From Lama guanicoe (Eukaryota), in contig MU053933.1 in the NCBI GenBank assembly GCA_013239625.1, positions 1,118,001 to 1,182,000 of the forward strand: 64,000 bases of DNA. The letters are read 5' to 3'. The notes below the pieces were generated by a model that searched no databases, was not told where the DNA came from, and saw only the letters and a program-made list of their open reading frames with translations. Position numbers and translations under genes: made by a program. Positions 7,914-45,410 of this stretch are shown piece by piece (the stretch's first letter is position 1; the number at the start of each line of letters is the position of its first letter).

Positions 7914-8367
7914 TGTGAATGAAAAATAAAGCAACCCATATCAGTAAACAGAGAACGCTGAAGCCATCAAATCATCAGCCGCTGCCGCCACCCCCCCAGT
8001 GAAGACAAGCCTGCAACCTGGCCTCTGCAGCCTGAGGGGATCAGAATGTGAAAGGACAAGATACTGGCTAGGTGCTTGTCAGAAGATTTAAATGAGCCCA
8101 AACGTTTGCTCCTTCCCATACACAGAAGAGCACTAAATTCTTTGAGATGTCTGGTTTTCTTTAACAGTAATTTTTAATGTTCTGACTACAGGGTCTTTGT
8201 TGTAAAACTCCTATAATAGCCTGGCTCCTCCCGTACCTCTTTGGAGCAATCCTTCAGAGCGATCTGGGAGGCTGTCATCCTGGGCTCCAGGGATTCAAGT
8301 CTCAGAAATGTCTGCAGAATAAAACATAAATCTCAGCTTCTAGGCTGCACATTTATTTCAGTCTACA
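7914..8367 (+). mobile_element. ERV1-type solo LTR
   Basis: TG...CA termini (tgtgaatgaaaa ... ttcagtctaca), TATA-like ctataata near 8211, AATAAA at 8318-8323. Subfamily not identified. Confidence 0.6.
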
Positions 8368-9149
8368 CTCCCTAAAGGAGGCTACTCCACCTGCATACGG
8401 GGCTTCTGTGGGTCACCTGGAGACAGGCATACTGAGGGCAGGGCACCGGACCAGAGGCCAGCCTGCAGTGGTGACAAGAGCTCACACCCGGGGCCCAAGC
8501 ACCTGGGGTCAGGCAGGTGCTGGGCACCTGTGCCATGCTTGGGGTGCACGTGCGCACTCTCCGCGACCCCGGCCTGCGCCCCAGGGAAGAAGGCAAGGGG
8601 CGGCCGCGGGCTTGTGTACAAAGGGGCGCCGCGCCCGGCAGGGGCCTGGGCCCCGGATACCCGCGCAGCCCGGCCTCCCAGGGCCGCCTCCGGCTGGCCA
8701 GGCCCGGCTGTGCGGGGGCGCACGAAGAGGGGCCGGCGGCTCCTCGCGCGGATGGTACAGCTCAGCTCCCCCCGCCGGACCGTGGCGGATGGTTTCGCCC
8801 ACCCGCGCCTGCTCCAAACCCCTCTGCCGCCGCTGAGGAGCGAGCGGAGGAGGCGTGACCTGAGCGCGCCACGCCCCCAGCTGCCAAGTCCTGAGGCGCG
8901 ATCGCGCCCCGGCGCGGCGGCTGAGGGCGGGGCCTGACTCTGGCGCAAGGCGGGGGCGGGGCCGGGCCGGCCCCAGCCCTCCCCCGGCTCACTCTCCGCC
9001 CTCGGCGTGCAGGCCCCGCCCCCAGCCGCCGCGGCGCAGGGACGGGGCGGGGCCCGGGCCCGGCAGGCCCCGCCCCCTCCGTGAATATTGATGCGGCGCG
9101 CGTCGGCGTCGCCCTCCTCCCATTGAGCGAGGCTGTGTCGCGTGGCCCA

Positions 9150-9237
9150 GCGTCGGCGTGACGGTTGGACGCGGGCGCGGCACTGCGGGTCCCGATTGCT
9201 GCAGCCGCTTGTCAGTGTGATGAAGATTGGCACCCAG
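9150..9237 (+). other. PKNOX1: PKNOX1 non-coding exon 1 (5' boundary approximate)
   Basis: Consensus donor CAG|GTAAGC at 9237/9238 inside the CpG island upstream of coding exon 2. The TSS cannot be determined from sequence. Confidence 0.75.
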
Positions 9238-9299
9238 GTAAGCTGTCACTCAACCGCTCCGCCGCCGCCGCCGCTCCGCCGCCCCGTCCCTATCAATCA
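9226..9299 (-). promoter_or_regulatory. PREP-PBX decamer TGAGTGACAG (9243-9252), CCAAT box (9226-9230) and TGATTGAT octamer (9292-9299)
   Basis: Exact motif matches on the - strand. Confidence 0.65.
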
Positions 9300-12200
9300 C
9301 GCCGGCCCGCAGGCGCCGCGGCCACCGCCCCGCCGCCGCCGCCCGGGTCTCCGCGGGCCGCCGCCGCCTGGGAGGGCCGCGCCGGACCCGCCGCCCAGGG
9401 CAGGTGAGCTGGTGAATTCTTCTGGAGCATAAGGTCTCTCATACTGCAGTACAAGGGTCTGCTGGTTGCAGACAAGAGCCACCAGCATGTTTCAAAGCCA
9501 ATTCTGTCCCCCACCTCACTCAAGAATGGCACTGCTGTGGCACTGACATGTTCCAAGCGAAGGGTGGCCGAGGCCCTGGACGCGGGGCGGGCGGCGGGGC
9601 GACCATGCGCCTCTCAGTCTGCGAGGGTCCCGCTTTCCCGGTGCGGCCAGTGGGGTCGGGGGTCCGGGAGGGGCCGGGGTGTGCTTGCCTTCTGCCCGAG
9701 GGCCGGGGTGCCGGGTTTCTGGAATTCGTTACGAATGCGCCGCGGATAATAAACGGCTAATTTGAACTCGATGACTGGACGTGTTGGGCACGGGCCGGCC
9801 GCTCTCTGGAATTCACATTCCTTTAGAAAGAAATCGTGACTCACTTCAGAAAAATCAGGAAGAGTTGAGTCTGCTTTATTTCAGCGCAGTGGCTGTTGAA
9901 ATGTCCTGTTTTATTGGTGGCTCTGAGGCTCAGCCAGTTAGGTTCTCCTTTGTGCTGTGTGACTCCCCACCTGCGTCTGACCTGTGCTGCGGGAACCAGG
10001 GTCCGAGGGGCTGGGAGCAGAATTAAGATGCTTGGTTGAGGCAGGCGGAGGATACCTGTGCGCAGGAAAATGTGCGTTTGGTAAATTTGATCGCGTGCTG
10101 GCAACCATCCAGGATATAATTGCCGTATGAAACGGGCTATAATTAATGACTTAGAGCCTAAGACTCAGCTTCACTGGTTTTTTCTTAGGAATGAGTACTT
10201 GCCACTTCAGGGTAAACGAAACCTTCAACTTTCGTTGGGTATAACTGATTTTTTTCCTGACATATTGAAAAATGACATATTTATATAACACATAGCATTT
10301 TATATAACACATTGTAAGTGTCATGTGAAACAGTGGAGGTGAGATGTGGCCATTCTGCTAGTACAGGTATTGGTGATGCTCCCAATCCAATTGTACGTTG
10401 ATTTGGAAGATGGCATACTGATGCAGATCTGCCTTTCACATTTTTTTTTCTTTTAGTTTACAGAGAGTGGATCCTTCTGTTATAATATTTGGTTGAATCT
10501 ACGATGTACCATTGTGTAATACTGACTGACACGGTGCTTTCTGAACGCACCAGTGGAAGGACTTACTACTTCAGAGATTTACAAGTGGGAATTAGAATGG
10601 ATGAAATATAGTTGGTGAAATATGACTTGAAAGATTAACATTCTGTGCTGATGATTTCAGTTTCAGCCGGTTGCATGGTTAATGGTAGTGGATTCCAACG
10701 CATTTGTTGGGTTCCTGTCCCCAAGGGCACATACATTTACACTCTTGTATCTCTGTTGTAACTTCAGAAAAGTACTACTTAAGAATAGTGAAAGGAACTG
10801 TGTAAATAGTAACGGTCTAGTTATAACTGTCACTTTTGTTGCAGACTAATTGAAAGTGTTTAAAAGAAAACCTTGAAACCACTAGAGTGAAGCAAAGCGT
10901 CTGCCCCTGGGCGTTTCCCTGTGCTCTCCTGGCCTCCAGACTCTTCACTGCAGCTGTTTTAGAAAAAGTAAAATGGGATCAAGAAGAGAACCTGTTATAC
11001 TCAACTTTCGTTATCAAAATATTGAACCAAATTGGTGATAAATTTCCTTAAATGCCACCTTATTGGCTCCCTTAGTAACAGACTGAACACAGGCTCAGCC
11101 ATCTCTTTCTGGGTGCTGATGGGTGTCACTGACAGTGTGCGATTGCTGTGGTAGTGCTGTGAAGACACCTGTGGGTTCTGTTGGTGAAGAAGTCACAGCT
11201 ACTATTAACACTCCGGGATTTTGTGTCTGCCTTCATAATTGAATGAGTGCTGAATGTCAGCCAGCTGTTATTGCAAATAAAGACGTGATTTTTCTTTCTT
11301 ATTCAGGTTCACAGAGAGCAAGTTAAGAACCTCTGCACTCAGTTTACTCTCAGCCCATCCCTTAGTAGGAATATGTATGTGCCTCTTTTTTCCTTCCTCA
11401 AATAGTTGTACTGATAGCAAAGGTGATGAGGAAATAAAAACAGTGCAGAGAAGGGAGCTCAGAGCTTGCAGTCTGGCGTATAGTGGGGTGAGGCCGTGTG
11501 GGGATGCTGTTGACCCCAGTGTGACGACTCGCGGCTGTGATGGCCCTGTCTTGTACATGCTGTTTAGGAAGACATGGGAAGGGAAATACAGTATAGAAGA
11601 GGTTCCATTTGGAAATTGTTAGAATCTACATTCAAGGGCCTAGAGGCATGGTTACTTGGTTGGAGAGGCCTGGCTGCACGGGCTTCAGGGAGGCCACACC
11701 AGCCAAGCTGCCCTGCAAGCAGCGTGGAGGGGGTACCTCGGCCTGAGCCGCTCCTGGGGTCAAGATGGCAGTCCCACCCGCCAAGTCACTTTCTGGCAGG
11801 TTCGCTCACAGAGGGCCGAGTGCTGATGCGGCAAACATGCTGTCCAATGGGGGCTTCAGCCCCCTCTGAGGAAGCATCATGGTTCTGAGGATGCCCCCCG
11901 GGGACCCGGAAGGGGACAGAGCAGCTGCCCGACTCCATCTAGGATTCCTTGGGGAAAAGGTCCTCAGGATTTGTCAAAATTCTGAAAAGTCCTGCTCTCT
12001 CAGGTTGCGAGACTGAGGGCCTGTGTGTTAGTAAAACTGTTGGAGCCACTTTATTGCCTTGAGTCTTTCTTGAAGTGACAGGAGGTGCTCGCCCTGCAGG
12101 TCCAGACACCAGGCCTTGCCCTCCCTCCCCAGCTGCTCCATATGGACTCGTGGGGAGATTATTTCTGCTCAGGGTGACGCCCCACCCCCGTCTCCCAAAA

Positions 12201-16699: not shown

Positions 16700-17900
16700 G
16701 AACTAGACTCAAGGTGAGAAGTGTCTGAGGAGCACATCCTCCTGCTCAAAGGTGTAGTTAGTAACCATAAGCTAATGCGTCTGTAACGTGGAGAAATATG
16801 GAGACTGATCAAAACAGAAGCTGACAGTTCTACACAGATGGGAGACTCTAATGTGAATCTTAGCAAGCCGCAAACCAAGTAGATCAAAAAGAAGAAAGGA
16901 TGTGGAACGGGTTCTCACCTGGCCCTGCTGGCATTCGGGGCCAGATGGTTCTTTGTCAGGGGGCATCCTGTGCACTGTAAGATGTCTAGCAGTGTCCCTG
17001 GCCTCTGCTCACTACATGCCAGTATCACAGAACCCCCTCCCTCACTGTGACAACCAGAAATGTGTCTGGACATTGTCAAATGTACCCTGGGGGCCAAAAT
17101 CATTTCTGGTTGAGAACCACTGACATAGAGGTTTCAAATAATATCGCTAATGGATATGTACAGAAATGCGTGCACAACAAACGACACATAGCTTCTCTTC
17201 AATTACATGGAGTGTTGAACAAAACTGGCCACATACTAGGCCACAAAGAAAGTAAGGTTTCAAAAAGTAGATACTATAGACCAGATTCTCAGACCACAGG
17301 GCAGCCTGGCTAGAGCCTCAGAGAGAAAGGAGAGCTAGAAGTACCTGCCTGAGCGTGTTAAAACCCCCTTCTTTGTATCTCTTGGGTTAGAGAGGAGATC
17401 GTTAACTACTTTGAGGCTCTCTGTTAATGAGTGACAGGACTACACAGCACAACCTACAGGGTGGGGCAAAAGCAGCTCTCACGAGAAAGGAGGTGTGTGG
17501 CCTTAAATGCATTTATTAGAGAACAAGAATAATAAGTGAATTAAGTTTTCAACTCAAGAAATGAGGAAAATAAAATTAAGGCAAATCTGTTTTTGCTTCC
17601 TGCAAATCTGATTAAGAAGAAACGAGAACACAGTATTTAAAAGGGGAGGTGACTACAGATGTGAAATTTGGCAAATGAGAACATACCAGGTACAGCTTGA
17701 CGGCAGTACATTTGAAGCGCTGCGGATGGCTTATGAAGAAGACTTAAATGACCAGAACTGACCCTGCAGGTAGGAAACTTGTACAGAGCAGCAACTTTAG
17801 ATGAAGTGGAGAAGGTAGTCAAGGTTCACCTTTTTGAAAAGGCACTGGGGCGAGTTAGATAAGCTTTCATGGAAGAGCTCATTCCTGTGTTGTACAGATT
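16700..17900 (+). mobile_element. Old L1 ORF2 remnant, interrupted by MER20
   Basis: ggccacatactaggccacaaagaaagt and ggccttaaatgcatttattaga...ttttcaactcaagaa resemble degraded L1 endonuclease-region sequence. Confidence 0.6.
16907..17122 (-). mobile_element. MER20 (hAT-Charlie)
   Basis: Ends ctggttgagaaccactg. Internal gtgacaaccagaaatgtgtctggacattgtcaaatgt. Confidence 0.8.
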
Positions 17901-23513: not shown

Positions 23514-23773
23514 TCCTAACGTCTCGGAGCGTGGTGACACGCCAGGGCCCTGGGCAGCAGGGCGGGTGCTGAGTGGGATTTGGCTGATGACGGGGTGTCG
23601 AGGGCGGTTTTTACTCCCGTGTGAAAATACGTGTGTTAAGAAGTCCGGTGCCATGTAATCGGGACAGCAGTGCTCTGCAGTGATTCACTGATGCTTCTCT
23701 GCTTTTGTTTTCCCAGACACCACTTGCTTTTGACTCAAGATGATTTGATGTTTTGTAATAAAGCTCATTAACC

Positions 23774-23824
23774 ATGATGGCTACACAGACGTTAAGTATA
23801 GACAGCTATCAAGACGGCCAACAA
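23774..23824 (+). CDS. PKNOX1: PKNOX1 exon 2 coding part (exon starts 23717): MMATQTLSIDSYQDGQQ
   Basis: Matches the known PKNOX1 N-terminus. Acceptor tttcccag, Kozak accATG, donor gtgagc. Confidence 0.97.
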
Positions 23825-45272: not shown

Positions 45273-45410
45273 NNNNNNNNNNNNNNNNNNNNNNNNNNNN
45301 NNNNNNNNNNNNNNNNNNNNNNNNNNNNNNNNNNNNNNNNNNNNNNNNNNNNNNNNNNNNNNNNNNNNNNNNNNNNNNNNNNNNNNNNNNNNNNNNNNNN
45401 NNNNNNNNNN
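45273..45410. other. Assembly gap (138 N)
   Basis: Seen directly. Confidence 1.

Follow-up and report, generated by a model that had tools for sequence, protein, structure and literature searches.

The window, as we call the whole 64,000-nucleotide stretch of Lama guanicoe DNA analysed here, carries PKNOX1 (PREP1) on the forward strand, with the exon 1 donor cut at 9237/9238 (Table 1). A profile scan of four exon translations returned Meis_PKNOX_N for two of them (E values of 2.7e-20 and 5.8e-18), Homeobox_KN for one and no match for the remaining one, and the homeodomain exon was identical to the PKNOX1 chain 1x2n_A at 25 of 25 residues, MEIS chains matching far more weakly. A 138-base assembly gap (45273-45410) breaks the coding exon after homeodomain helix 3. 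The promoter, exon 1 and the start of intron 1 lie in a CpG island, in which 500-bp intervals starting at 8251 to 9501 had CpG observed/expected ratios of 0.58-0.99 and GC contents of 59-77%; six GC-box matches fall within 8800-9100, and the published human start (PMC3008670), placed on the window by its primers, corresponds to about 8880. Also present in this GC-rich island are a short A/T-rich box (9084-9089) and, on the reverse strand, one-mismatch CCAAT-like words at 9126 and 9091, which may belong to a core promoter serving a start further downstream.

Table 1. Features at the 5' end of PKNOX1 in the window
Feature	Position	Strand	Basis or remark
CpG island with PKNOX1 promoter, exon 1 and intron 1 start	8250..9800	.	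CpG obs/exp, GC, GC boxes
Zebrafish-to-mammal conserved block (exon 1 3' part and first 16 intron bases)	9184..9253	+	by-eye primer comparison
Degenerate TALE site and degenerate CCAAT, one mismatch each, exactly 11 bp; candidate cryptic composite	9195..9217	-	pattern search
Upstream ATG; 14-codon uORF when spliced to exon 2	9220..9222	+	in silico splice
Exon 1 CCAAT box, 14 bp 3' of decamer core	9226..9230	-	motif match
Exon 1 splice donor	9235..9243	+	8/9 consensus positions
PREP1-PBX decamer (DECA, TGAnTGACAG), exact match	9243..9252	-	intron +6 to +15
PBX octamer (TGATNNAT class)	9290..9299	-	motif match
PKNOX1 exon 2	23717..23824	+	acceptor 23717, main ATG 23774

A preliminary description of this region had placed three motifs on the reverse strand around the exon 1 donor, and all three were confirmed: the decamer, the CCAAT box and a 10-mer containing the octamer. 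The gap between the end of the decamer and the CCAAT box is, as described, 12 nt and includes the donor cut; the nearly pure G/C surroundings ascribed to the motifs exist on the intron side (flanks of 93% and 92% GC), whereas 9181-9260 has 59% GC. The 9290-9299 10-mer also matches the DECA form TGATTGACAG at nine of ten positions, and no CCAAT lies at the canonical distance from its octamer. The donor and the decamer share one base, the +6 position of the donor, with which the decamer ends and which is the sole departure from the donor consensus. Both the human and the zebrafish intron 1 primers printed in PMC3008670 start at donor base 9238, and the zebrafish cDNA primer given there departs from the genomic sequence at the exon 1 donor. 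Within 8700-10000, only one other site, at 9401-9409 on the forward strand (cut 9403/9404), reaches the same donor score of 8/9. If that second site were used, the decamer and the octamer would lie inside the 5' UTR, and the uORF starting at 9220 would grow to 66 codons, its stop still preceding the main ATG.

Conservation was judged by eye from a comparison of the window with the primers printed in PMC3008670, and thus covers human and zebrafish only. We found that the zebrafish exon 1 primers agree with the window at 14 of 15 bases in 9184-9198 and 24 of 25 in 9199-9223; the printed primers also agree at all seven bases of 9231-9237. The first 16 bases of the 23-base zebrafish intron primer are identical from 9238 to 9253, followed by agreement at three of the last seven, so that identity stops one base past the decamer. 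The human intron primer is identical to the window over its whole length of 23 bases, starting at 9238; the reverse primer for the human intron agrees with 9294-9313 in 18 of 20 bases, a segment that spans six of the eight octamer bases. Of the 16 intron bases that are invariant, donor and decamer together account for 15. The segment 9225-9230, which holds the CCAAT box, falls outside all sequence printed in the text of that paper. Among its tabulated sites, the zebrafish Pbx-Prep1 entry corresponds to window 9241-9250, and the mouse entries gave no clean alignment. The decamer is supported as a genuine conserved PREP1-PBX site: it matches the consensus exactly, and the intron primers of human and zebrafish carry it unchanged. 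Exon 1 holds another candidate TALE site (9159-9174, forward strand), which agrees at 15 of 16 bases with the 'Pbx-Hox' site that Table 2 of PMC3008670 gives for human.

An upstream ORF had also been proposed to begin beside the donor. An ATG is present at 9220, and the 14-codon frame obtained by in silico splicing, which is in frame with the main ORF, stops at 23741, 5' of the main ATG; the zebrafish primer and the corresponding Table 2 entry of PMC3008670 have C at the middle base of this triplet and hence no ATG. The 9220 uORF is therefore no explanation for the deep conservation, and a conserved uORF as its driver is unsupported. A literature search returned no relevant paper on a PKNOX1 uORF. 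Other upstream ATGs on the forward strand open frames of 11 codons (9091), two codons (23740) and seven codons (23748), the last with its stop at 23769, directly before the main ATG.

Over the 64 kb of the window neither motif is enriched: two decamers were seen against 0.76 expected (at least two were reached in 20 of 100 shuffles) and one octamer against 1.36 expected. The second perfect decamer (17428-17437, forward strand) lies deep in intron 1 in sequence of 45% GC, is within window chance and has no CCAAT within 60 bp. When the CpG island (8250-9800) was dinucleotide-shuffled 20,000 times, the decamer arose in 70 of the shuffles, the octamer in 156 and the two jointly in none; CCAAT by itself arose in 17,661, and a decamer with a CCAAT at most 25 bp away in one. 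For promoter sequence such shuffling is a weak null model, given that ES cells have 1,271 TSS-proximal Prep1 peaks (PMC4395233); Prep1 peaks at CpG promoters are accordingly common. The case for the decamer is carried by position and conservation, and conservation is a stronger argument than rarity among shuffles.

The known composite element has the form GAnnGAC-11 bp-CCAAT and is bound by PBX1-PREP1, NF-Y and Sp2; AlphaFold 3 models, which are predictions, accommodate spacings of 10-12 bp, show Sp2 detached from NF-Y once the spacing reaches 13 and imply independent binding beyond 12 bp (bioRxiv 10.64898/2026.02.16.706105). We took the spacing convention from the numbering of that model, in which GAC occupies nucleotides 15-17 and CCAA nucleotides 29-32. 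By this convention the 12-nt gap between decamer and CCAAT box is a spacing of 14 bp. The order and orientation are those of the composite, with DECA 5' of CCAAT on the same strand; the pair was rejected as a canonical composite, its 14 bp standing against 11 (±1). The pair does not have the stereo-alignment of the canonical element, and the window contains no strict DECA-CCAAT composite at 10-12 bp. The flanks of the CCAAT box are poor by the NF-Y consensus, and since the box also overlaps an 8 of 10 match to a Prep1-bound site at Fgf4, it could be a TALE variant. That match covers 9224-9233 on the forward strand, the Fgf4 site being the one reported in PMC4395233. On the reverse strand, the degenerate pair at 9217-9195 has exactly the 11-bp spacing; it is the sole match to its pattern in the window, and a match arose in 287 of 10,000 island shuffles, a frequency to be read with the pattern having been defined post hoc. 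Its TALE half is listed as a human site in Table 2 of PMC3008670, and the pair would appear to be kept intact in zebrafish, on the assumption that primers F1 and F2 adjoin each other.

Published peak tables were consulted for occupancy of the orthologous mouse 5' end. In ES cells, a Prep1 peak lies at Pknox1 (chr17:31701164-31702425, FDR 0, fold 218.6; Laurent et al. 2015, PMC4395233), with its centre some 78 bp beyond the start that table S2 lists for the gene. It is fourth by fold among the 151 rows examined of table S1, and its score of 3100 is a capped value common to top peaks, with 18 of the 151 scoring at least that much; its width of 1.26 kb is not base-resolved. In wild-type MEFs, NF-YA, NF-YB and NF-YC peaks lie at +44, +22 and +29 from a Pknox1 transcript start, with weak-to-middling ranks of 975 of 1,203, 1,672 of 4,155 and 1,584 of 1,789, respectively (Volkel et al. 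2015, PMC4368557). Because the two sets of peak tables use different assemblies, the mouse NF-Y summits fit either exon 1 box. The same source gives a similarly graded Flag-Sp2NT (Sp2 N-terminus) peak at +21 (rank 479 of 716), which the degenerate 9217-9195 pair could account for; by nearest-gene name, Pknox1 was absent there from the 760 full-length Sp2 peaks and from both Sp3 sheets. In Sp2-null MEFs, the same name search found Pknox1 in neither the 1,669 NF-YA nor the 1,266 NF-YC peaks, and the NF-YB peak was kept (2.46 vs 3.04 per million; PMC4368557). No human PREP1 peaks were found in the supplements of PMC9098460 that were searched. As for zebrafish ChIP, pknox1/prep1.1 is named in none of seven supplementary files of PMC6023610, nor does the bioRxiv 720102 text mention pknox; the tables being possibly coordinate-based, this speaks neither for nor against binding. 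Prep1 and all three NF-Y subunits thus have ChIP peaks at the mouse Pknox1 5' end, in support of the preliminary description. At peak resolution and in different cell types, PREP1 occupancy is strong and NF-Y occupancy weak; the decamer element is real, conserved and, in mouse at that resolution, bound, and we infer that the decamer itself is the base set contacted by PREP1.

The functional data all come from species other than Lama guanicoe. A 563-bp zebrafish intron fragment, assayed without site mutation, raised the activity of a minimal promoter about 10-fold in HeLa cells and also activated human promoter constructs; it narrowed the expression of a 5-kb fish construct, for which the authors allow silencing properties, and its effects were tissue-specific (PMC3008670). 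Pknox1 RNA in Prep1-null and wild-type ES cells was 5.78 and 7.85 RPKM (ratio 0.74, adjusted p 5.8e-5; PMC4395233), a ratio that derives from the targeted allele itself and falls short of that paper's own 0.7 cut-off. PREP1 therefore appears unnecessary for most of its own expression in these cells. After NF-YB siRNA in HeLa cells, PKNOX1 appears in the list of 1,622 upregulated genes, which the authors read as indirect (PMC7793273; the portion of the list examined gives one accession per gene and so does not distinguish isoforms), so that an activating role of NF-Y at PKNOX1 is unsupported. Among DECA/NF-Y elements in a HEK293 reporter, one of seven was active (PMC6023610). No site-mutation experiment on the PKNOX1 TALE sites was found in the open-access literature searched.

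These observations may be best explained by a promoter-proximal, self-sensing element, in which a conserved cluster of TALE sites just 3' of the PKNOX1 start would allow modest positive tuning through PREP1-PBX, a reading that we hold with moderate confidence. Specifically, PREP1-PBX dimers would bind the perfect decamer, to judge from the mouse peak, and the octamer, 47 bp further into the intron, would probably assist them. NF-Y, weakly bound in exon 1 according to the mouse peaks, would, to judge from the spacing, not partner the decamer through a canonical Sp2 bridge. The net result would be that the PKNOX1 product tunes the transcription of its own gene modestly, and most likely upwards, above a GC-box/EGR1-driven promoter that would operate independently of the TALE element. 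We infer both the sign and the size of this feedback. The effect looks modulatory at most, because 74% of Pknox1 RNA is left in Prep1-null ES cells and PKNOX1 goes up on NF-YB knockdown. Of the autoregulation by PREP1/PBX with NF-Y originally suggested, the conserved decamer and the Prep1 and NF-Y peaks are supported; a canonical composite spacing and activation by NF-Y are not, the uORF ATG is missing from the zebrafish primer, and the idea had been published before.

The opposite sign of feedback, in which TALE factors and NF-Y, bound within transcribed sequence, hold back initiation or early elongation and so buffer PKNOX1 dose, is an unlikely reading that nevertheless accounts for several observations. 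Every site lies 3' of the published human start, the mouse NF-Y summits lie 3' of the transcript start, PKNOX1 rises after NF-YB siRNA, and the intron fragment restricted the 5-kb fish construct, with silencing properties allowed by its authors; however, the list of upregulated genes is long and was deemed indirect, the fragment is an activator in HeLa cells, and Pknox1 RNA goes down, not up, in Prep1-null cells. A version of this reading may involve an Sp2-bridged complex on the degenerate 11-bp pair, for which the Flag-Sp2NT peak and the absence of NF-YA and NF-YC rows in Sp2-null MEFs would speak, but full-length Sp2 has no Pknox1 row, NF-YB is retained in the Sp2-null cells, and the pair is mismatched inside CCAAT and was matched by chance at the post hoc frequency given above. 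Its most elaborate form, in which the cryptic composite at the Sp2-bridging distance and the donor-fused decamer together make an intragenic damper, with PREP1-PBX, NF-Y and Sp2 limiting transcription of their own subunit or splicing of its first intron, strikes us as improbable; if true, it would buffer the dose of a haploinsufficient gene of chromosome 21.

The element might also serve cross-regulation, with MEIS-PBX or PBX-HOX as the functional occupants in development and PREP1 a passive one in cultured cells. Control by Pbx or Meis is the alternative given by Bernardi et al., the second site fits a PBX-HOX octamer, and the fish fragment had tissue-specific effects; we nevertheless consider this quite unlikely, a promoter DECA being the signature of PREP1-PBX and MEIS favouring distal sites (bioRxiv 10.64898/2026.02.16.706105, PMC4395233, PMC6411007), and the Prep1 peak at Pknox1 being among the strongest of the S1 rows examined. 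Equally, the site could be bound but inconsequential, its conservation stemming from constraint at the RNA level (5' UTR, first-exon definition, U1 pairing), of which the TALE match would be a tolerated by-product, as the length of the conserved block (about 70 bp, far exceeding the motifs) and the survival of most expression after Prep1 loss would allow. This, too, we consider quite unlikely, since the zebrafish primer stops matching a single base beyond the decamer (16/16, then 3/7), and the donor consensus needs only +1 to +6, with the +6 base obeying the decamer and not the splice consensus. A self-sensing element with modest, most likely positive tuning remains our preferred reading.

PREP1 is dose-sensitive, being a haploinsufficient tumour suppressor in mouse (PMC3008670) and lying in the Down syndrome critical region (PMC2887940), which makes a possible feedback element relevant to the setting of that dose. 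The self-binding site and the hypothesis of autoregulation are already published (Bernardi et al. 2010, PMC3008670): the Prep/Pbx sites reported there, where intron 1 of PREP1/prep1.1 begins, are at the same locus and on the same bases, with primers that contain the decamer, and the paper lists the site, reports the enhancer activity of the zebrafish fragment and says in its Discussion that prep1.1 may be 'auto-regulated' or under the control of Pbx or Meis. The text examined of that paper is without CCAAT/NF-Y, uORF, ChIP or TALE-site mutation, and the window represents another mammal. Searches of the open-access literature gave no paper that connects NF-Y or Sp2 with the PKNOX1 promoter or puts the loop to the test. 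What is added here are the Prep1, NF-Y and Sp2NT peaks that published tables place at the mouse element, and the recognition that the obvious motif pair departs from the canonical spacing, which a degenerate pair nearby does have. Because edits at +7 to +15 would alter the decamer and leave the donor intact, the 2010 hypothesis is open to a direct test.

Compared with the DECA-CCAAT composites described elsewhere (bioRxiv 10.64898/2026.02.16.706105; PMC7793273; PMC6023610; and, as cited by others, Volkel 2018), the PKNOX1 element is similar in having DECA 5' of CCAAT on the same strand in a CpG promoter and, in mouse, Prep1, NF-Y and Sp2NT peaks, but differs in its spacing of 14 rather than 11, in sites that are transcribed and span a splice donor, and in that PKNOX1 rises, rather than falls, on loss of NF-YB. 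A further parallel is the Sp2 promoter, a self-target of TALE/NF-Y/Sp2 at which the complex likewise binds the gene of one of its own subunits (bioRxiv 10.64898/2026.02.16.706105). That promoter has five CCAAT boxes in -150/+1, of which two lie 11 bp and one lies 10 bp away from a DECA motif, whereas PKNOX1 has one perfect box off the spacing and one degenerate pair on it.
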